The notes under the pieces were generated by a model. It made no database searches. It was not told the DNA's origin and worked only from the letters and a program-made list of their open reading frames with translations. Below, piece by piece: positions 7,501 through 62,145 of a stretch of 64,000 nucleotides of DNA. The position numbers and the translations under genes are program-made. Where the stretch lies: NCBI GenBank assembly GCA_030324005.1, contig JARDVH010000099.1, forward strand, positions 25,330,800 to 25,394,799. Reading direction: 5' to 3'. Origin of the DNA: Negaprion brevirostris (lineage: Eukaryota). Position 1 is the stretch's first letter; every line of letters begins with the position of its first letter.

Positions 7501-10500
7501 CATTAGCTGTTTGTTTAATAATAGGAAACCTCATTGAACTGTTTGCTGAAAATATGACAGTGGGTAAATTTCTAATTCAAATGGTGCCACCTTAAGAAGT
7601 GTGTGGCTTTTTATTTTAATTTAGATTAAGGTTTCATTTGAAGAAAATAAATGAGCTTTTGTGATGATATTGTGCTATTTTATTTTGTTTAAGGGCGGAC
7701 TGCTTCAAGAGGCACTGTTTTATTATAAATAGTCTGTTTGTCTTGCAGGAATGCAGAGATGCTGAAAAAGCAGATAATTAATCATTTTAACCATTTCAGT
7801 GTTTATTTTGCAAGAGGCTTAATGGAGTGTTTTTTGTTTAAAGTAATAGAAGGTAAGTTAGGTATACTGGGACAGAGTCATGTGATATTAGGTTAGTGAA
7901 AGGCCTGTGGCAGCGAATCAGTGTCACTTTCATTTTTTAACAAAGAGCAGTTGCTGCCTGGAGCTGGCAGAATGAAGAGGTAGTCCTGTGCTCTCAAGTT
8001 TTCTGAGAGCTTCAGGGTTGTTAACCCAAGGCAAAGCACATATGCCTGGATTTGCTAACTAGTTTTCAAGTGGAGTTAGAGATCTTCTGCAAGCTGCTGA
8101 ATCTCATTCAATCTCTTTGAAAGCTCCAAGATTATTAGCAAATGTTGAAGCAAGTATACACATGTTTTGTTCACAATATTTGAAGTGCATTTTAGGAGAA
8201 ATAATGCTTAATTGGAACTGATATAGTGATAAGTTAGAATGTGGAATCGTTCCCTTTCGTTTTAAGTATTGTTCAACTGTTAAAGGTTAAGGTAATTCTT
8301 TTGTTATAGTTAAACTGTGTTGTTAAGTACAGTTTGTTTTGATAAAAGTTCCTTAGTTTGTCAGTATAATCATACCGAAAGTGAAGCATTCTATCCTCAC
8401 GTTTATGCCAAAATAGAGAAATTGTTGGGTGTAGTCTGGCTTCATATATTGTTGGGGTTCTGATCTGGCACACTAACACTTCATTCAATTGCTGTTATTT
8501 CAAGAAGACCTTTGTTGTAGTTTTATTAAATTTTTACTGATGTTGTTTAACAGTTGCTAATGCTGAATTTGTAAAGACTAAAAGCAGATTTTTCTTCTTT
8601 CAGTTCAGTCTAGACTTCATCAAGGTCAGTATGGGAGGTAAGTGTATTCAGTTAATTCCTAAAATTGCAAATCAGTGGACTGTAAAGTTGGGGTCCAAAC
8701 ATTCAGCCTCCATATCAATTTGGGAACAAAAATAGAGCTAGAATGGGCAAAAAAGTTGTTTAAAACTATTTCCTTAAAATCCAATTTGGAAAACTTTTAA
8801 GTTTAAACTTTCATGTTGGAGTTGATGTTTCTTGATACTGACGAATTCAGAGTAAAGAGGCTTTCCAGATTTGTAAACCACTTTATAAATGCAAAATCTG
8901 GCATTTAATAAATCATCTTGTCCTCTTGCGAGACAAAAATTTGAAAGTAAACTCTAATGTTTGGTGATAAAGGGAAAACGAAATTACGCCTGAGGTAAAT
9001 TGTGCCAAAGTTTGTCCTAATGGATCAAAATGTACACCTGCTTTTGTGCTGACTTCCAAATCTGCTCAACGTCCATTTTCCAGAAGGCACTTCATGATTT
9101 TACTTTTCCTTCCACTCTGTAAATTTCTCTCTCTGAAATGGTATTTTGCTGCTTTTTTTCTCTTGTTAACAATTTATTTGGTTACTGCAAAGAAAAATTG
9201 CTGACGTTGGAACAGTTTTTTAGTTAACCTGATAGTAAATGAATTTTGCGATTGTAGTCTTTTTGCAAAACCTTTTAGAATACTGCAGACTTGAGTTGAA
9301 GGCAGTCAAAAATGACCTTCCAGCTTTACAACATTTATTTAAGTCTCTTGATTAAGCATTAGTTAGGTTGTCATCTGCATGGAGGATTCCCTGTAGACTC
9401 TCTCATATTGTAAGTTGATATGAGGAGCGAAATTCGGGAGTCCTTATCTGCTATAGACTCATTACTTTAACAAGAACAGTCCAACCGTACTCAACTTTTA
9501 ACCAAACTGTTGCCATTCAGAAATGCCACGCTGGAGGTCAGTCAGATGAAGAACAATATTAGAGTACTTAATGTAGCAGTGACCTGTAGTTTAAATGTCT
9601 TCCTTGTTACATTAATGCCATCTGCTTGCTGGCAATTTTTAAATTAAAACCTGAGGAATGGTCTCAGAATTCTGTCCCTTTTATTCAGTAGAGCTTTACA
9701 AGGATTTATGCTGGTATGGTTAACGGTAAACACAATAAGAAGTCTCACAACTCCAGGTTAAAGCTATGAGACTTAAAGTTGTAAACTCTGTGAAACTTCT
9801 TACCATGTTTACCCCAGTCCTACACCAGCATCTCCACATCATGGTAACTGTAAGCCAGCAAGACTTTAATGGGACAGTGATCTTTCGTTTAGTCCGTTAC
9901 TCTGCATTTTTCTTTGTGAGGAATTGCAACGTTATTCCAAGAATATGACATGATTCTGAATCATTATCTTTATTTTCGTGATCCCTGACTCTTGCTAATT
10001 GGGGAAGTAGTTTGGAGAAGTTGCTGTAAGAGAATGCCAGATGAGCATATATTCAAAATGGTTAAACTGTCAGAACAGCAGAGTTCATTATGTTCATTGT
10101 ACTGTTACTCTCATGGACATAGTAAGCACTAGCAAATAACTACTTTTAAATTTAATTCAATGTGACTGGACTGATAGTTCAATTGGAATTCTTGATAGAA
10201 ATTTTTCTAATTCATTAGCTAAACCAAATCAGTCATACTGTTAATCCACATATGTCCAAAAATGTGACTACAAGAGTCATCTTTCTGTCCTTCCTTTGCA
10301 GTGCCGAATGAGTCATCCCAGGAGATAGTTTTAAAAGCCACAGAATTCACTATGTGCGAATGGTGCAGTGCACGCGTATTACCAGTACTTTTTCTGCAAA
10401 TGACAGCTGCTGCTTGCCACAATATCCAGTCATCTCTCAAAATGAACAAAGAGAAGAACTGGTTTGATTCTCAAGGGACCAGTGAGTATAACCCACTGAT

Positions 10501-13500
10501 TAATTATGTTAACTTGAGAACTTTGACCTTTTATATAAATGTTACTGTACCTGAATATTTGTATCCCTTAATCCTAAATCATTCCACCATTGCCACTATG
10601 CTTGCTCACTTGTACTGCCTTCTCATCCTTGGAATGGTTAATCTTAATGTTCTCATCCTTGCTTTCAAATCCGTCCATGGCCTTCCCCACTGCTCTCCTC
10701 ATCTCTGTAACCTTCTCCTGCCCTAAAGTTCTTCGTGATATCTGGCCTCTTGCTTGTTATTCCACCATTGGTGGCTGAGCATTTGATTGCCTAGGTCTTG
10801 AATGCTGGAATAGTCGAATTAAATTACTTTGTTGTCTATCTCCACTTCCTCCTCTACGGCATGCCTTTATGTCTACCCACTATGACTCGACATTAGTTCA
10901 CATGATTTTGTCAAATTTTGATTGATAATATGCTGATGAATTGCTTTGGAATATTGCATTAAAAGTGAGATATTAAAACTGGTTGGTTTTTTTTTTGTTG
11001 AGCGAGGAATTATAGCCATTTTGTTGAAGTAGAACATCCACTTGCTAATGGTGCTCATTGTGTCTCTACTTCAATTAATTTTCTAACCTGAGACAGTTTG
11101 AGCTTTTCACCCAATCACAGCAAGTTACAGCACTGAAAATGCTGACTCTTTTTATATAGTTTAATCTATTCATCCCATTTCCCTGCTCTTTATTTCTATT
11201 TCTCTTGTCTCCAATGTGATATCACCTTGATGAATCTTCTTTTCCTCCTCTCTATATCCTATTCGTCCTCCCATTGTTGTTCAGCTCCATTGGTCCACTC
11301 TTGTCCATCTAAACATCCTCTGCATGGCATTTCTTCCAACTCCTCTGGAGCCCTTCAAGAATAGTCATGATGTGGATGTGTCGGCGTTGGACTGGGGTAA
11401 ACACAGTAAAAAGTCTGACAACACCAGGTTTTAGTCCAACCGATTTATTTGATAATAAACCCACAAGCTTTCGAGGGGTCACCCTCTTCGTCAGGTGAAT
11501 GGAGAGTTCTGGCCTCAGACAGAGCATATACAGCACAGACAGTTTAGAGATTACTGATTAGTAATCTCTGTATTAATCTGTATTAGTAATCTCTAAGTAA
11601 TTACTGATTACTAATCAGTAATCTCTAAACTGCCTGTGCTGTATATGCTCTGTCCGAGGCCAGGACTCTCCATTCACCTGACAAAGAGGGTGTCCCCTTG
11701 AAAGCTTGTAAGTTTACTATCAAATAAATCGGTTGGACTAAAACCTGGTGTTGTCAGACTTTTTACCGCCCTTCAAGAATCCAGCCATGGCATCCTCCTC
11801 GTCATTTGTAGGATGCCTACTGATGACATCATTCCTAAACATGGGATTTGCTTTCATAATTACACTGCTGGCAGTGGCTCTTGTTGAGCCATAATTCCTT
11901 CAGTTGAACATTTGGAAGACCAAACGTTAGGCCTCAGCTGCAAACCCTGTACCGTTGACACCAATACCAGTCTTGCAGTCTCAGTCAGACTGCTTGCAAC
12001 TTCAGCATTCTATTTGAACTTGAGCTGACTTTCCCATATCTTCTCCATCATAAAGACTGCCAACCTTAACTGTTCCCACCAGTGTCCCTACCTCAGCCAA
12101 TTGGCCACTGAAAGTCTGATCCCTGTCCTTGTCATCTCCAGACTCAACACTTCCAATCTTCTCCTGGCCAATCTCTCTAATTTTCCATCCCACTGCAGCT
12201 CAATAAAAACTGTCCTCAGCCTTGGGCATTGTTGGCTTGCATTGCCTCTTGATATCGAAACACTGCAATTTAAAATTCTTATCCTTGTGTTTAAATGTTT
12301 TGATAGCCTTACCTTTCCCTATCTGTATAACAACACCTGTCAATGCTACTGAACTTTCCATCCTCTGACTCTAGTTTGTTGTGTATTTTCCCCTCTCTTA
12401 GCTGCATCACATCCACAAGTACCCTTCTACCCCATGTCTTCATTAGCAGCTGTACTTTAATATTTAAATTCTTCCATCTTTAACTCTTTTGGACCTTCAT
12501 CAAAGCCCACTTCTTTGACCAATGTTTTTGAGATTCCTCCTAATACTTTGTCCTGTTCCTCAACATCCATTTTTTCAATAATTATGTTAATGTATTTAGC
12601 CCAAGAAATTATTTGTATAAATTTAGCACTCAATCCCCCAGCTATAAAAATAGGATGTATTTTTAAAATAGGTATCATTTGCTCTACTATATTGTAGGAT
12701 TTATGTATCCACAACTTGTTTTGCTTTTCAAATGTCATTTCCCTCTTTTCCCTCTGAAAATGTTTCACTACACACTTGTAGCAAGATAGGAACAGGAGTT
12801 TGCCATTTAGAGCATTAAGCGTGTTCTACCATTCAATGAGATATTGTTGGTCTGTGACCTAACTCCAACAACCCTGCAATTGCCCCATATCCCTCAAATG
12901 TAAAATTTTCCATTTCAGGCAACATTTGATTTGATTTATTATTGTCACATGTATTAGTATACAGTGAACAGTATTGTTTCTTGTGTGCTTATGCAGACAA
13001 AGCATACCGTTCATAGAGAAGAAAAGGAGAGTGTGCAGGATGTTGTTTTACAGTCATAGCTAGGGTGTAGAGAAAGATTAACTTAACATGATGCAGGTCC
13101 ATTCAGAAGTCTTATAGCAGCAGAGAAGAAACTGTTCTTGAGTTGGTTGGTACGTGACCTCAGACTTTTGTATCTTTTTCCTGAAGGAAGAAGATGGAAG
13201 AAAGTACATCTGGGGTGTGTGGGGTCCTTGATTATGTTGGCTGCTTCTCCAAGGCAGTAGGAAGTGTAGACAGAGTCAGTGGATGGGAGGCTGGTTTGCG
13301 TGATGGACTGGGCTTTGTTCACGACCCTTTGCAGTTTTTAGCGGTTTTGGACCGAGAAGGAACCAGACCAGTGAGGCAACCAGAAAGAATGCTTTCTAAA
13401 ATGCCTCTGTAAGCTTTGGTTAGAGTCGTAGCATGCATGCCAAATTTCCCTAGCTTCTTGAGAAAATAGAGAGATTTCTTAACTATAGCGTCAGCATGGA

Positions 13501-16500
13501 GTGATCAGGACAGGTTGTTGTGATTTGAACACGAAGAAACTTGAAGCTCTCGACCATTTCCGCTTTGCCCTTAATGATGTAGGCAGGGGCATGCCCTCCA
13601 CTGCACTTCCTGAAGTCTTCATAAATTTCCTCTTTACCCTGTCTATTGCAGTCGCACTCTTCCTGTAAAGTAGTGATCAGAACTGCATGGAGTATTCTAG
13701 ATGTGGCCATTTAGTGTGGTATGCCGTTCCAGTATGACCTCCCTGCTCTCATATTCGATACTGCAACTAATAAAGCGAAGTGACTTCTTAACCACCTCAT
13801 GATCGGCTCCCTTATCTTTAGAAATCTGTGGACGTACACTTCAAAATTCCTCTGTTCCTCTAGGCTTCTCAGTGTCGTACAATTTACTGTGCAGTCTCTT
13901 GTCTTGTTTGCCCTCCCCACATGCATAAACTCTCACTTCTCCAGATTGAATTCAATTTGCTACTTTTCTGCCCACCTAATCAGTCCATTGTAGTCTACAG
14001 CTTTCTTCCTCACAATCAACTACACTGCTAATTTTTCTATCACCTGGAAACGTTTCAATCATTCCTCTGATATTTATGTCTAAATCGTTAATTTATATCA
14101 AGAAACAATAGGCATTGTACTGAGCCCTGCAGGACTCCACAGGCTTGTAATTATTTGGCTTATCCCTTCCTTTTTTAAAAACAATGGTACAAAGTTTAAT
14201 ATTCTCTGGCACAATTCACATCTTTTTACCTGTGCTTAACCCCCTCTCCACTCACATTGCCTGTATCTTTAAGACTTGATTACCTGTAAAGATTTGTATT
14301 CCAACTATTATTTTGTGAACTGAGTTTGTGTCTTTATATGCTCTTGTGAACATAACTCCCACTCACCTGATGAAGGGGCAGGGCTCTGAAAGCTAGTGTT
14401 TGTGCTACCAAATAAACTCGTTGGACTTTAACCTGGTGTGGTGAGACTTCTTACTGTGACCACTTCTGCCACCAGAGAGAATTGGAAAATTGTGGTCAGA
14501 ACCTCCCTTGCATCCCTTAGCAACATTTCATCAGGGCCTGGTGATTAGTTCCTTTGCAAAGATGTTAAATCCAAAAATATTTCTTGTCTCGTTGTTTATA
14601 CCATCCAGTATTTCACATTCTTCCTCCTTAACTAATGTCTACATCCACCTGTTTGATAAAGACAGATACAAAATATTCACTTACTACCATGCCCACTTCT
14701 TCCACCTGCACACAAGTTACTGTTTTTACCATATGTCCTTATTTATCACCTTGCTGGTTATGTGTTTATAAAATGCCTTAGGATTTTCCTTTATTTTGCT
14801 TGTCAGTATTTTTTTTCAAGCCCTCTCCTTGCTTTCCTAATTTTATTTTTCACTGATATCCTGTACTGTCTATACTCCTCGTATCGACAATAATGAGCTC
14901 TTTGTATCTGACGTAAGCTTCTCTATTTTTGTTCTTCTCCTCTCTATGCTTTTTGACATCTGGTGGGGCTGGCATCTAAATTTGGGTAACAACCTTTTTC
15001 TTTCTGGAATTTTATTTCTGAAGCCTCTCTTTCCTGCCTGATGCCTCCCATTGCTGTGACGATAATTTACCTTCATGTAGCTGTTTCCACTCCACTTCTC
15101 CCAAATCACATCTCAGTGTAATAAAATTGGCCTTTCCCCAAGTAAAGACTTTTATTCTTAGTCCATCTTTGCCCTTTTTCATAACTGCAAACTAAATTAT
15201 AGTCACTGTCCCCAAAATATTCATCCACTCCTACCTGCTTGGCAGACAAATTAACAGACGAACTATGGTCAAGCACACCACACTTCAGAGCAAAACACAA
15301 GTGCAACTGTGACAGAGTCTATTGATTTCTCAAGAATCCACCCAGAAGTTGGAAAGCACCAAGTCAGACAATCTCACTGACGTTCTATATCACAAGGTAT
15401 TTCCAGCTTCATGTTTGAAGATTTATCCTTGGAATTCGCTTCCACTCGGGCAGCTTTAACAATGGCCCACTGCACAGAGTTTCAGTCTCGCCTTCTGAGA
15501 TTCATTCTCCCTAGATTCCTGAGTCTGTATTTTAGCCTCCACTTAATGGTGTAATTTCAGCTCTTTGCTGGACAGCTAGCTTCACTGAGCTGGAACTGGC
15601 TTTGTGCTTCACCAATTTCCTGTCTCCTGGCTCTACCCAGCGGCCTAAGACTCCAAGGGCTTTGTCTGAGCCCTCTTCAATTACCAGGATTTCTCAGGGA
15701 CCGTTTTGATTATCAGGGCTTCGATTAACAGGACTTCTTCCCCAGCCCCCTGACTCTCCTGATATTGACCGCCTCCAGAAACATTGTTCACTGACCCTTG
15801 AACTGTTATGATGACCTATCAAAACACTCTGAGGGTCCCACCCTTGTTATTAGGTAGGATCAATGTAACAAGCATTGGGACGTCCTGCACCTTTAAATGT
15901 TACACTCTTCACACGTGTCTACATGTGCGCAGTTAAGTTGCTGAGTGACACCTGAAATATTTTATCCATGTAGCTGTCAGCCCCTCGGTTGTATTGCTGT
16001 TCAAAGACCAAAACTCTCAGCAATAGTTCCTTTAGCTAGCTGATGGCATTTAAATTCATGGGATATGACATCACTGGCAAGGCTGGCATTTATTTTCTGT
16101 CTCTAATTTTACTTGAGAAGATAATGATCATGAGCTACCTTCTTGAACCACTACAGTCCACATATAGTTAGGAAATTATCCAGTAACAGTGAAGGAACAA
16201 CTGCACAGGATGGTGTCTGACATGGATGGAGGCTTGTAGATAGAATACAGTCATAGAACCCCTACAATGCAGGAGCCTGCACCAACAACAATCCCACCCA
16301 GGCCCTATCCCCATACCCCACATATTTATCCTGCCAGACGCCCGACATTAAGGAGCAATTTAGTTTGGCCAGTCAACCTAACCTGTACATCTTTCGGACT
16401 GTGGGAGGAAACCAGAGCAGCCAGAGAAAACACACGCATACATGGGGAAAACATGCAAACTCCATATGGACAATCACCTGAGGCTGGAATTAAGCCCAGG

Positions 16501-25500: not shown

Positions 25501-28500
25501 TACATTCATCAACACAAGTATTATGAAACAATCCGTAGGGATACTCAACCAACCATCCTGGCAGCTCAGTGTTTGAAAAGAGCAACAGCGTCAAGCAATA
25601 ACCCACTGATATCGTCCATTGCACGCACCATCCGCCCACAAACCCCATCCCGCTGAGGTTGAGGTGGAAGCCAACCTGGCTCACTGGAGAGGGCAAATAT
25701 GTTAAAAAGGTTGGAAATTTCAGATTTAACCTGCTTTGCGAGTCTAATTGTGGCTGTCCTGGGACCACTGACAGTGAAGACAATTTGGGAAGAAGGAAAG
25801 CACGTTCTTGACATTGGTTCTGGTAAGGAAGAGCGAGGAGCCCTTCATGACCTTCCCATTGGTGATTGTGTCCCCATCACCAATCCTGTTGCACCCCCCA
25901 GTTAAAACTCCAAGTGGGCAAATCCAGAATTCTGAGTTTCTTGCTTGCTCCCGGTTCCACCTCCCCATTCTCCTACCCCAGCTCGTGATGCAGCAACAAA
26001 TTCTTCCAATAACTGTGCAGATCCATATTCAAAATAAATGTTTTTGATACTTATCCTCTCCAATGTGCAAGTTCCACTGTGCTTTAGTATTTTACCCCTA
26101 TGTAGAAGTACATAATTTCTGTCACGAGGTGGCACTGTCTGGAAGCTCATCATATAATTTGTTTTATACTTTGTCGAGCTCTGCAGTCTTGGAGGATTTC
26201 TCATTAGTCACCGCGCAGACAAATGACTGCAATAACACTAATACCAGGACAATACTCTGGTGAATTTGAAAAAGGTTAAAGAAAGAACTTGCATTTATAA
26301 AGAGACTTTCATCACTTTGGGACGTCTTAGCTGCTTTCCAGATAATGAATTACTTTCTTAAGTGCAGTTACTGTTTTAAACAGTGCATCCTAGTGCATTC
26401 TCAAGGTACTTTAATACAATGAATTGTTTCCAATGAGCAAAAAGAACGGACTCTTCCTTTTATGTGCAGACCCGACAATAGCAATGAAATTAATGATGTG
26501 ATCCGTTTTGGTAGTTGGAAGGAAACTTGGCCAGGTCATCAGTTAAATTTCTCAAATTTCATTATAGGATATTTGGCATCCACTTGAATGATCAAAACAA
26601 AACACATGATACTAGAATGCCAGGCCAGACCATATAAGGGTGGCATGGTGATACAGTGGTTAGCACAGCTGCCCCACAGTGCCAGGGAACTGGGTTAAAT
26701 AACAACCTTGGATAACTATGGAGTTTGCACATTCTCCCCACTTCTGTGTGGGTTTCCTCCCACAGTGCTCCAGTTTCCTCCAGCAGTTCAAAGATGTGCC
26801 AGTTAGGTAGATTGGCCATGCTAAATTGTCTCTTAGTGTCCAAAGATGTGTAGGTTCAATGGATTAGCCAAGCTAAATGCATGAAGTTACAGGAGGGGAG
26901 GGCTTGTGTGGAATACTCTTTCGAGAGTTGGTGCAGACCCTATGGACAGAATGACCTCTCTCTGCACTATAGGGATTCTATAGTTCTATGTGATCAGTGA
27001 CTGGAAAGGAACTTAAAAGTTGTAAATTTCTGACTTTGACAGAACTGTGTCAGTCATTGAAGCAAGAGAAGAAGAAATAGTATGAAGGAAACTGAAATAT
27101 ATGAAGTAAAGGAAGCCAGTGGTGGCCAGTAGGTGACTTGAGGTCCTGACAGATTTCAGTTGCCACATTTCAATAACGAATCTCTTCCAAAGCTTAATTT
27201 GTGACAAAATCTACAAAAAAATTTCATCGAAGATCCATTGGATGCTGCATACCCTTTGACAGATGTAATGTTTGCGAATGCAGCTTCCAATCAAGAGACC
27301 CCATCTCTGTTCCTCCAGAAAAAGATGTGGACATGCCGGCGTTGGACTGGGGTAAACACAGTAAAAAGTCTGACAACACCAGGTTTAAGTCCAACCGATT
27401 NNNNNNNNNNNNNNNNNNNNNNNNNNNNNNNNNNNNNNNNNNNNNNNNNNNNNNNNNNNNNNNNNNNNNNNNNNNNNNNNNNNNNNNNNNNNNNNNNNNN
27501 AGTGAGCTTACTATCAAATAAATTGATTGGACTTAAACCTGGTGTTGTCAGACTTTTTACTGTGTCCTCCAGAAAAAAACATAACTTACAAATTAAGGAA
27601 ATGCAAATTTCAACATTGATCTTTATTTTAGATATTTGTAGAATTATTCCCAACTATATATATGTGGAAGAGATCTAAAATTATGGAAAATCATTCCATG
27701 GGCACACTTGTCAATTAATTGTATATTGGTCAAAGTAATATCAATTTTCAGGTTTATATCTTTATCACTCTCCGTCAAGGCCTAAGTTACTTTTTTTTGG
27801 ATCATTCGCAGTGTATGTTGAGGGAGCTTAGCTATAATAAATACGGATTCAGTAATTCATTGATTTGTCCTGTCCTTGTTTTGTAACTGCAGGTATTTAG
27901 TACTCGAAAAGATCAAACAGCAGGATGCAGATAGAGTGCACGTTTTCAGTTCCTTTTTTTACAAACGACTGAATCAGCGAGAACGACGGAATGTTCCAGA
28001 ATCTGCCAATCTATCGTAAGCTTTCATAACTGAGACTCAAGAGTTATGTAATTTGCCTCCCTATTGAAGTGGAATACATGAAAAGGTTTTTGCGAAGAAA
28101 TCCTATATTCTCCCACGGTTTTTCTCCACCTGCCCCACTGCCACCACAGGGAAGAAAGCAAGAGCAATTGATGTTTGCGCTGGCCATCCATATCAAGGCA
28201 TTAATTTGTCACTGATGTTCTTTCGAAAATACTTTCAGCTCAATTTGAACAACTTTTGTTTTCCACTTTCTACATGGGACACATTTGGGAAAAAAAACAA
28301 TGTAATCAGCTATGTGCTCCTTTAGTAAGGAAATATACTGGATCACTCTGCTGAACCCTGAGTATCGCAGGTTGAAAAGGGTCCCTTCCTATTGCACCGT
28401 CTTGTTTGAGTATAGATGCACTCAATAACTTTTGCATGTTGTTTACTTCTCTAAGAATCAATGGCAGGGGGTTTCCAGCTTGCCCACTTGCCAGACTGCA

Positions 28501-46500: not shown

Positions 46501-49500
46501 ATCAAAGATGAGGATGTGATTGAACAGACTGGTAACTGCAGAAATGTCAAGAATGAGGGCTAACGGTTAGACAATTTGAATTTTGAAAGTAAAATTATAA
46601 ATTCATTGAAAGAGCATTTTTTCCAAGATTGGGAGGAGAAAGGACTGTGGGAGAGCAATGCAAGGAAATGATCAGAGATATATCTATCTATGATTGATGT
46701 TAAATGTTAAAGAAGGAAAAAATATGAAAGTAGCTCATGAAGTAGAGTACTGGAAATCTGGAATTGAAAAAATGCAGGTGTGAAGCAGACTGAAAAGATC
46801 AGGAAGATCTTAGTTACGTCCTGTGTTCCCTGCAGTCAGCAGGGTGCTCAAACAAATGCTTCATGTCGTGAGGCCGGCTATCTTCCATTGTGAACAAATG
46901 TCATGTCCCCAGTACCTCTGTTTCTGAGCCAAAAAGAGTTTACCGTAGTCTAAAATTAGAAAAACATAACCTCATATCAGAGTGTTTCCAGGAGCTCAGG
47001 CAAAAGAAGATATTATTCCTGCAGCTTGCATTGAACTTGATTGCTACTAGTGTAGGTGTTTATCTTCAGGTCTGAGTAAGCAAAGGGTCACATTTGCAGC
47101 CAGAATAAAGGTGTCCAACAAAATGGTCACCAGCTGTGTTTCTCATATGAAGGTGGCAGTATATTTGAGCAAGGAATCCAGTATGGTAGAATGGAAGAAA
47201 TCCCTGTCTTGTGGAAAATTCATTTGGGGACCCTGGACAATGGTATGGAAAGAATGAATATTGTACCTGGAAGCTTGGATGGTGGAAGATGAATGATTGT
47301 ATTTGATGTGATACAAGGAGTATAACCAGTCAATGACATTGCCTTCAGATATCCCAGAATGTGACATGGCAGGTGTTAAAATTCCATGTCATTCTCTCAC
47401 CCGACAGCCATAACCCAATTAATCTCTCATATTCACATTGTTGTTCTTTTTCACAGGCCATGTATTCTCATCATGGACTCTTTACGTGGACCAAGCCGTG
47501 CAAACGTGGTTAAGATCCTGCGAGAGTAAGAGCTATTCTGAAAATCACTCCTACGCTTTTTAAAATTCTAACAGGGATATCCCCACTTGACTTTCTTTAT
47601 TGGTTCTTGGAACAGATACCTTGAAGTAGAATGGGAAGTGAGGAAAGCGAGCAAGAGGGCTTTCACCAAAGATGTGATTAAGGGCTCCAATCCTCGTGTT
47701 CCTCAGCAAGACAACTTTAGCGATTGTGGTGTATACATCCTCCAGTATGTAGAAAGTTTTTTTGAGGTTAGTATCAACTTTTACTCTGGTTGCGAGAAGA
47801 GCAGAAGTCTGTTGCGAAAGAAGGGCGGTTTTAATTTCATGTTGACTAGTCACTTTTGCTTTTGATCCTCCTCTTCTGGAGGTTTTGAATTGCTTAGATA
47901 GATGCATAATGTACCAGTAACCCACCTGGGCATTGAATATTGATAGATTAATCACCAGCAAGCCCAATTTCGTTTTATTCATGTAAGCATACTAACCAGC
48001 AGTAGGTCACCAGATAATTAGTAGTGGAAGACCTGGCTGATTTATATCCCCAGCCACCCACTAGACCAAACCAACTAACTCACTGCTGGCAATATTGTTT
48101 ACACTCCTTAATAACTTTGTTTCTGCTGCATGTAAACTAACTATTGGAGAATTGCAATAGGAGTAAAAAAACCAAAAATCTCAAACCAATACCAAAACAT
48201 TCAGCCAAGCATTTAGGACATTGAGGAATATTGTAGACTGATGGTCTGAAAATAGCTTTTTTAGCTGAGGCAATCAAAGAATTGAAATAGCACCTCTCCT
48301 TTGTTTATTTTCAAAAGGTTTTGACATTCAGTGCAAATGAATTGGGCCTCTTATGACTAATGCCATTTTAGTTCTTCATATTTGAGGTTCCGTTCAGAAA
48401 GGAAATTTGAATTGCGAACCCTTTTCAATAATAATAATAAGTCAATAAGAAATAGGAGCAGGAGCAGGCCATCTAGCCCCTCGAGCCTGCCCCACCATTC
48501 AATAAGTTCGTGGCTGATCTGTCGTGTCTCAGTTCCACATTCCTGCCCTCTCCCCATAACCCTTAATCCCCTCGCCTATCAAAANNNNNNNNNNNNNNNN
48601 NNNNNNNNNNNNNNNNNNNNNNNNNNNNNNNNNNNNNNNNNNNNNNNNNNNNNNNNNNNNNNNNNNNNNNNNNNNNNNNNNNNNACACACACTGTTCAAG
48701 GAAACTATCCCGGCAGCATTCCAAGAACAACTCCTCGAGCCCACCGCGTCCAACATGGGTCAACCAATCAATATGTAGATTGAAATTTGAATCTGGATCG
48801 TGCTGCTGACGTGATCCATATCATCATCAAGATCACCTGCTTCAATCTGCTTAACATCATCTGTCTTGGACCCTGCTGAAGCCCTCAATTGTGCCTTTGT
48901 TACCTCTGGACTGTAGTATCCTGGGGGCTTTCCTGGGTGCCCAGCCTTGGTGTATCATCTTTAAATTTAAACTCAGCCAAAACACTGCTAACCCTATCCA
49001 AATTCGCATCAAATCCTGTTCACCCATCACTGCTGAGGGACGTTGGCTGCCAGCAGTGACGTGATTCTCAATTCCTTTTTTATTCAAATTCCTCCATAGT
49101 TCTCCTCTCCCTATCTAGCCCTGTATCCTTCCACCAGTTGCACAACTCTGAGGTTTCTGTGTTCGCCAATTTTGATTGTTCATGCAAAATTCAGTGCTCT
49201 GCTGTTAACAGCCATGTGTTCAGATGTCTGGCCCCTGAAATGTGGAATTTCTTCCCCTAAACCTTGCCACCATTCTACTTCTCTCTGCTTCTTTAAGAGA
49301 CCCTTTAAAACCTATCTCTTTCACTAAACATTGAGTCATCTGCCCTTGTGTTTTATTATGTGACTGTTAAATGTTGTCTAATAATGCCTCTGAGAGTTGT
49401 GAATGCAAGTTTTTGAGAGGCACAGCTAAAGTTAATAAAGCGTAGCTACAAAGGTGCTGTGGCATACAGATATCTTCAGGACGTTGTCTTTTCCCCACCT

Positions 49501-61760: not shown

Positions 61761-61789
61761 AAAACCACAAGAAATTCCAAAAGATTGTG

Positions 61790-62145
61790 AATATAGCCCA
61801 ATCCATTACGCAAACCAGCCTCCCATCCAATGACTCTTCCTTCTCACTTCTCACTGCCTCAACAAAGCAGCCAGCATAATTAAGGACCCCACGCACCATG
61901 GACATTCTCTTTTCCATCTTCTTCCTTCAGGAAAAAGATACAAAAGTCTGAGGTCACGTACCAACTGACTCAAGAATAGCTTCTACCCTGCTGCTGTCAG
62001 ACCTTTGATCTTTCTTGACACTGTAGCTATGATTGTAACACTACATTCTGCACTCTTGTTTCCTTTTCTGAACAGTATGCATGCAAGAAACAATATTTTT
62101 CACTGTATGCCAAAACATGTGACAATAATAAATCAAACCAAATCA
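61790..62145 (+). mobile_element. Rex1/Babar-type LINE 3' end
   Basis: Reverse-complement match to 12925-13320. Confidence 0.85.

Follow-up and report, generated by a model that had tools for sequence, protein, structure and literature searches.

A putatively Neptune-type Penelope-like element inserted head to head in an intron of a shark SENP6/7-type gene, likely by priming from both ends of a staggered cut

The insertion and its host gene

The window analysed here, a stretch of 64,000 nucleotides of the Negaprion brevirostris assembly, contains a non-coding insert flanked by a 13-nt direct repeat (Table 1). The insert, of 405 nt in the window sequence, is composed of a 43-nt tail, a first arm, a 49-nt junction, and a second arm. 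An earlier, sequence-only reading had described inverted arms at 11406-11566 and 11606-11766, and these were found as claimed: each is 161 nt long, they are 94% complementary, and they are spaced by 39 nt; the one-sided tail, put at about 40 nt, is slightly longer when measured. Arm sequence with homology to the family stops at 11561 and restarts at 11611, the two arms having an identical stop position at the tip, and the 49 nt between them are a patchwork built of short arm-tip pieces. The predicted fold of the 405-nt RNA has an energy of -288 kcal/mol (z = -31.7), with an equally stable structure in 0 of 100 shuffles. The insert lacks coding capacity, as had been stated, though the end of its tail corresponds to the first two codons of the family's ORF.

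Table 1. Features of the insertion and its surroundings, in positions of the window
Feature	Position	Strand	Basis
Exon-like segment upstream of the insert, host gene of the SENP6/7 type	10302..10481	+	Open frame, AG/GT ends
Target-site duplication (TSD), left copy, 13 nt	11350..11362	+	Exact direct repeat; single copy at empty sites in 4/4 runs
43-nt tail of the PLE, bounded by the two 3' end sites	11363..11405	-	
ATG-ACT at the end of the tail, codons 1-2 of the family ORF	11368..11363	-	
Arm 1, tailed 5'-truncated copy of the 3' UTR/pseudo-LTR, haplotype T-A-G-T	11406..11561	-	
Predicted minimal type I hammerhead within arm 1, intact core	11462..11497	-	Descriptor from the accessible part of PMC4209133
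Unique 49-nt junction of arm-tip pieces in both orientations (templated filler)	11562..11610	strandless	
Arm 2, tail-less 5'-truncated copy of the same 3' end, haplotype C-T-A-C	11611..11767	+	
Degenerate hammerhead (G8>A at 11683, C11.1>U at 11699, helix I G>A at 11710)	11675..11710	+	
TSD, right copy, 13 nt	11768..11780	+	Exact direct repeat and empty sites

The sequence-only reading had placed the insert in an intron of SENP6, a plausible name for the host gene. That it lies in an intron of a plus-strand gene of the SENP6/7 type is borne out by the exon-like stretch upstream and by a Peptidase_C48 exon at 47572-47862, whose best solved relative is SENP7; the choice of SENP6 over SENP7 is not borne out. 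A protein atlas search with the host exon gave no usable match.

In contigs from all four of the related runs examined (24 were listed), the left flank is joined to the right flank with a single 13-mer. The contigs match the left flank as far as 11362, or 11361 in one case, and pick up the right flank at 11768, so that the two flank pieces overlap by 13, 13, 13, and 12 nt. Because all four runs show empty sites, the 13-nt repeat, originally noticed as an exact duplication on both sides, is a true TSD. The empty sites also mean that the insert arose after the divergence from genomes with flanks that are about 2-4% different; it is lineage-specific. One of the four runs has the organism code of the best-matching run, yet its flank variants are common to other organisms, which does not support a polymorphism within the species.

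The parent element

The family is abundant: 3,205 sites in the genome match a 40-mer of the arm exactly (control, 0), and the left half of the insert gave 2,997 first-look candidates in the 2.69 Gb. Other copies extend beyond the fold point of the insert, via the UTR, into a frame ending with a GIY-YIG nuclease. The autonomous GIY-YIG/RT partner that had been called for is represented by longer copies continuing into such an ORF, those fetched being all broken. The nuclease was identified by eye from its VYLIRC..C..WYIGET motif; a Pfam search left it unrecognised, and the RVT_1 match (E 6.7e-5) was under the curated cut-off. One locus, L154, shows the whole series in its proper order, from RT motifs and thumb through linker and nuclease to UTR and hammerhead, and is 80% identical to the young 3' end, whilst nuclease and UTR are present at 94% in L059/L151 and a C-x4-C-x2-C linker lies immediately upstream of the nuclease in L152, L153, and L179. 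Neither the 32 nuclease loci nor the ORF-start loci listed (20 fetched) yielded an intact full-length ORF; the long "open frames" in these loci are runs of N, and every fetched copy is broken. In most of the ORF-start loci listed, a pseudo-LTR, that is, the hammerhead/end sequence plus the tail, leads straight into the ATG; the loci showing this belong to related, older sub-lineages. The named homologous proteins are from sharks, and several carry RVT_1.

The Neptune clade, according to the accessible text of PMC8557442, has an RT and a CX2-5CxxC linker, as well as a C-terminal GIY-YIG with CCHH. By the features given there, the parent appears from its sequence to be an endonuclease-bearing PLE with a Neptune/Nematis linker; the label "Neptune-type" is used here as a reading of the linker motif. 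The 3' ends of the copies cluster at reference positions 396-403 and 434-442, about 38 nt apart, and 96 loci sorted by end type comprise 78 tail-less, 16 tailed, and 2 other. Variable 5' truncation, an inverted 5' copy, and a TSD of variable length characterise the family.

Several other copies deserve mention. The window contains three head-to-head pairs, including the 11350-11780 insert. The pair at 27324-27565 is of the same young family, with the tailed arm on the left, the tail-less arm on the right, an N gap at the tip, and a flank duplication of about 13 nt, whilst that at 9725-9843, in the intron before the 10302 exon, is older and short, with the tail-less arm on the left, the tailed arm on the right, and a scrambled middle. 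An older single-orientation copy (73% to the young family) at 14211-14458, downstream of the 10302 exon and before the exon-like frame that follows at about 18140, has an intact-looking hammerhead core on the plus strand, in sense to the host. Another very high-copy repeat has two copies in opposite orientation at 12924-13348 and 61761-62143. Elsewhere, an internally deleted copy at L182:5394-6200 (+) lacks the RT, and the N-terminal part of its ORF is fused with linker and nuclease into one open frame of 269 aa; L204 has a similar deletion. Finally, a stretch 72-80% identical to the linker/nuclease of the element occurs in annotated shark proteins (P0008, P0015, P0017, P0018, and P0020, described as NOXP20-like, cytochrome P450, septin 5a, XRCC5, and PPP1R12A-like isoforms); these stretches may be exonised copies or errors in the gene models.

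The hammerheads

A hammerhead motif had been reported in each arm. Arm 1 alone has an intact minimal core, with a helix I of 3 bp, a helix II of 5 bp, and a palindromic AGCU replacing helix III. The motif of arm 2 has degenerated: its core carries G8>A, a helix I pair is broken, and C11.1>U is present as well. It is predicted by sequence to be inactive. The intact hammerhead is antisense to the host gene; since the intact motif of arm 1 is on the minus strand, the host pre-mRNA would have just the dead copy in sense, inside a long duplex.

Across the family, the motif conforms to the minimal type I hammerhead, following the descriptor in the accessible part of PMC4209133, with a conserved core, the palindromic AGCU, and a variable helix II. 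Helix II has at least 3 pairs in 46 of 52 distinct family variants, compared with 4.4 in shuffles (maximum 11); the motif is a predicted ribozyme. Rfam gave nothing at the gathering score within the window; at E <= 10, there were only generic hairpins far below the cut-offs, and no hammerhead at any threshold tried. Folded alone, each of the two hammerheads was no more stable than shuffles (z -0.5 and +0.7), as expected of a minimal motif.

As for the host, the insert is most likely inert. The long dsRNA stem that had been foreseen in any transcript is a prediction only, and the maximal effect to be expected would be, at most, the folding of host pre-mRNA into an intronic stem of 161 bp.

One insertion or a family of hairpins

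The sequence-only reading had left a choice between a one-off, truncated and inverted PLE insertion and a member of a non-autonomous hairpin family. Symmetric search patterns returned 109 and 517 head-to-head pairs (controls, 0), such that the genome has at least 517 besides this insert. The 96 loci picked with the 40-mer (first 100 matches) fall into 42 with an inverted partner, 42 in which the 5' end is gapped, and so unreadable, and no partner is visible, and 12 that stand alone, with neither partner nor gap.

Could such hairpins, then, be mobile as units, in the manner of a MITE or a retrozyme? A clean TSD does surround a non-coding, ribozyme-bearing hairpin, and hundreds of hairpins exist genome-wide. 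However, the junction matches itself at 100% over 111 nt, and the 40 candidates scored, out of 341, include no second copy, the other full-span matches being at 71-75%. Moreover, fold points vary: 30 gap-free pairs (from the first 50 of 109) span 35 to 222 nt and have 25 distinct breakpoint pairs. This was the count of copies with the same inversion breakpoint that had been recommended, and it supports the one-off branch. The hammerheads also point apart, whereas those of retrozymes are in tandem, and the scar of one-strand A>G changes is absent from this insert and 34 other pairs. Together with the continuation of other copies into a GIY-YIG/RT ORF, these observations refute the hairpin-family branch and make a family mobile as a unit very improbable. 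An artefact of assembly, namely a chimeric fold-back read, might likewise be suspected in a short-read style assembly with gaps at many hairpin tips, but it can practically be dismissed, given that the arm differences are real family alleles at 9 of 148 sites and that the TSD is identical to the empty site.

The search for an A-to-I (ADAR) scar gave, in these 35 pairs, 20 A>G and 26 T>C of 172 differences, with a one-strand excess in none; of the 8 arm differences in this insert, 1 is A>G and 3 are T>C, and lineage sites account for two of these T>C.

Pairing of tailed and tail-less arms

Within a sample of 50 head-to-head pairs, 34 could be classified, 16 having been dropped for gaps or broken alignment, and 32 of the 34 have one tailed and one tail-less arm (p = 3e-8 against 50:50); a gap interrupts one of the two remaining pairs. 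A sample of 42 pairs, 9 of which were dropped once their ends were read, gave 30 of 33; here the rule-breakers are two tail-less/tail-less pairs and one tailed/tailed pair, a further tailed/tailed pair being in the 50-pair sample. In the 40-mer sample, which has 7 loci in common with the 42-pair sample, 34 of 36 loci combine the two ends and, on reading, one exception was tailed and the other gapped. These counts show that the pairing of a tailed with a tail-less arm is a rule of the family. A literature search in which few subscription papers were covered found no report of this rule, or of pairs made from two templates.

An exact TSD of at least 10 nt flanks 19 of the 50 pairs, as against 0 of 300 shuffled pairs. 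With one mismatch allowed, the tabulated lengths, which had also been recommended, are 10-15 nt in 23 of 37 pairs, with a mode of 12 (13 in this insert). Microhomology between TSD and template exists at both ends, with means of 1.87 and 1.57 nt in 23 pairs and a null of 0.70 (99.9th percentile 1.43), although these means are possibly inflated by choosing the best repeat for each pair. In 24 resolved pairs, the arm that reaches further 5' (by at least 8 nt) is the tail-less one in 8 and the tailed one in 7, the arms being level in 9. In the 8 pairs in which the tail-less arm is the one reaching further, each arm has sequence absent from the other, and self-copying cannot produce these pairs. 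Taken together, the pairing, the TSD, the microhomology, and the non-nested arms favour a staggered cut whose two ends both act as primers, rather than the self-priming proposed in print.

The divergence between arms within a pair is 5.7%, compared with 8.5% for permuted pairs (36 pairs), and mismatches at segregating sites within pairs amount to 17 of 133, compared with 45%. The arms are therefore usually of one lineage, which fits a single source RNA; self-priming predicts the same. A systematic difference in haplotype between tailed and tail-less arms found no support (p = 1 at all six sites, in a pattern-picked sample with small counts). Nor do 5' ends accumulate at the hammerhead's cut site or its front edge: the cluster at reference 292-298 lies at the edge of the search pattern, and with a second search pattern, 74 5' ends were spread over 236 to 352, with no sharp peak.

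The discordant arms of this insert

Four of the nine differences between the arms of the 11350-11780 insert are linked family variants. The T-A-G-T of the tailed arm is present in 11 other loci and the C-T-A-C of the tail-less arm in 17 others; these loci were chosen by likeness to each arm, and the counts are not frequencies. The simplest reading of this mismatch is that the arms probably had two templates, either two RNAs or two pseudo-LTRs of one tandem transcript. In L248 and L261, the arms differ in helix II type and at lineage sites, and these are candidate two-template pairs.

Another possibility is that both arms were primed on one RNA, or on identical RNAs, by the same integration mechanism, and that gene conversion from a family copy later overwrote one of them. 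Near-identical donors exist in thousands, the majority of pairs are concordant, and at reference site 274, close to the tip, the two arms agree in having G, the rarer variant. Conversion is not needed to account for this G, which is common within the lineage of the tail-less arm and which is also combined with the haplotype of the tailed arm in L006, and the four discordant sites cover most of the arm. On this evidence, conversion is rather unlikely, and two templates are preferred.

How the insert may have formed

We consider it quite probable that the insert stems from one lineage-specific insertion event of a high-copy Neptune-type PLE and is non-coding, a structure in which two 5'-truncated, hammerhead-bearing ends lie head to head, likely reverse-transcribed from both 3' ends of a 13-base staggered cut. 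The element's GIY-YIG nuclease would cut both strands about 13 nt apart. One cut end would prime reverse transcription at the start site beside the ATG, which would give the tail, and the other at the site about 38 nt upstream, which would give none. Both cDNAs would stop early, their tips would be linked by end-joining with templated filler, and fill-in would generate the TSD; in this insert, the two cDNAs were probably made on different pseudo-LTR templates. A junction made of arm-tip pieces is what templated filler leads one to expect.

The competing explanation is a self-priming fold-back in which one strand, antisense RNA or first cDNA, folds and is copied back to give the inverted arm, as suggested for the Penelope elements of rotifers in the discussion of PMC3846280. 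It draws support from the shared lineage of most arms and, in this insert, from the symmetry at the tip and the short palindromic filler. Nevertheless, it requires the copy to be nested in its template, which 8 of the 24 resolved pairs are not, and arms that are identical at birth, whereas here four linked family sites differ; in addition, the outer ends of both arms have microhomology with the target and a fixed start site. Self-priming is accordingly improbable, and two-ended priming is retained here.

A more general proposal, which we make tentatively and would not call the likelier outcome, is that vertebrate PLEs integrate as a dimer, in which each half uses a start site of its own, tailed or tail-less, to prime one end of a double-strand cut with a 12-13-nt stagger. 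The halves could carry different RNAs, and this insert would be a two-RNA fossil. If this is true, the hundreds to thousands of pairs in shark genomes would suffice to test the mechanism by sequence alone. The origin of the inverted ends and one-sided tail of PLEs is called undefined in the accessible text of PMC8557442, and the idea in print, that of self-priming (PMC3846280, in the part available), misfits arms that are not nested or that are of two lineages. The present counts connect the two in vitro RT start sites with the two ends of one integration event. In practical terms, hairpins of this kind disrupt assemblies made from short reads and may be confused with MITEs or miRNA precursors. 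The insert itself is of an ordinary, known kind, and its modest value lies in the family-level pattern of mechanism and in its discordant arms.

Comparison with known systems

In LINE-1 twin priming, both cut ends prime cDNA and the outcome is an inversion within the TSD. The second primer of L1 is at a variable internal site, and the product is a single inverted copy without duplication; here, by contrast, both primers are at fixed sites near the same end, so that this end is duplicated.

The insert had also been put forward as the best candidate for an under-described system, a suggestion overtaken by the literature. An inverted, 5'-truncated copy, a one-sided tail of 30-40 bp, and a TSD in the insertion units of EN+ PLEs are already in print for Pen2a_Av, in the accessible parts of PMC3846280 and the legend of Fig. 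2 of PMC8557442, and the same inverted layout is in the available text of PMC8969392. With units of the Pen2a_Av type, as these sources describe them, the present family shares the head-to-head inverted copy, the one-sided tail, the short TSD, the hammerhead in the repeat, and the assembly gaps at the inversion. It differs from them in having no ORF between the arms, both copies being truncated inside the UTR, in a TSD of 13 nt (10-15 in the family) rather than 8-10 nt, and in a tail whose end coincides with the start codon instead of lying 22 codons inside the ORF. The parent ORF resembles that of the Neptune clade in domain order and linker motif, as far as the latter is given in the accessible text of PMC8557442.

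The closest biochemical parallel is with PAc, a Poseidon element of Anolis, for which the main text of PMC11167929 reports that the PLE protein in vitro cuts and extends both strands and uses two internal start sites that bound the tail. The two tail-bounding RT starts, the cutting and extension of both strands, and the predicted dimer are points of likeness. According to that text, the RT starts of PAc are 111-118 nt inside the ORF, whereas here they are at the ATG and about 38 nt before it, and its hammerhead overlaps the ATG, whereas here it ends about 95 nt before the ATG. PAc is a Poseidon element, the one here is Neptune-type, and paired head-to-head products are not covered in the main text of that paper.

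Lastly, the non-LTR retrozymes of metazoans are, in the accessible text of PMC7229834, direct tandem repeats with canonical hammerheads and circular RNA. Like them, the insert is short and non-coding, has a type I hammerhead, and is plausibly mobilised by a PLE. A metazoan retrozyme was nonetheless rejected as its identity: the arms form an inverted pair rather than a direct tandem, and the hammerheads are minimal, with one predicted from its sequence to be dead.
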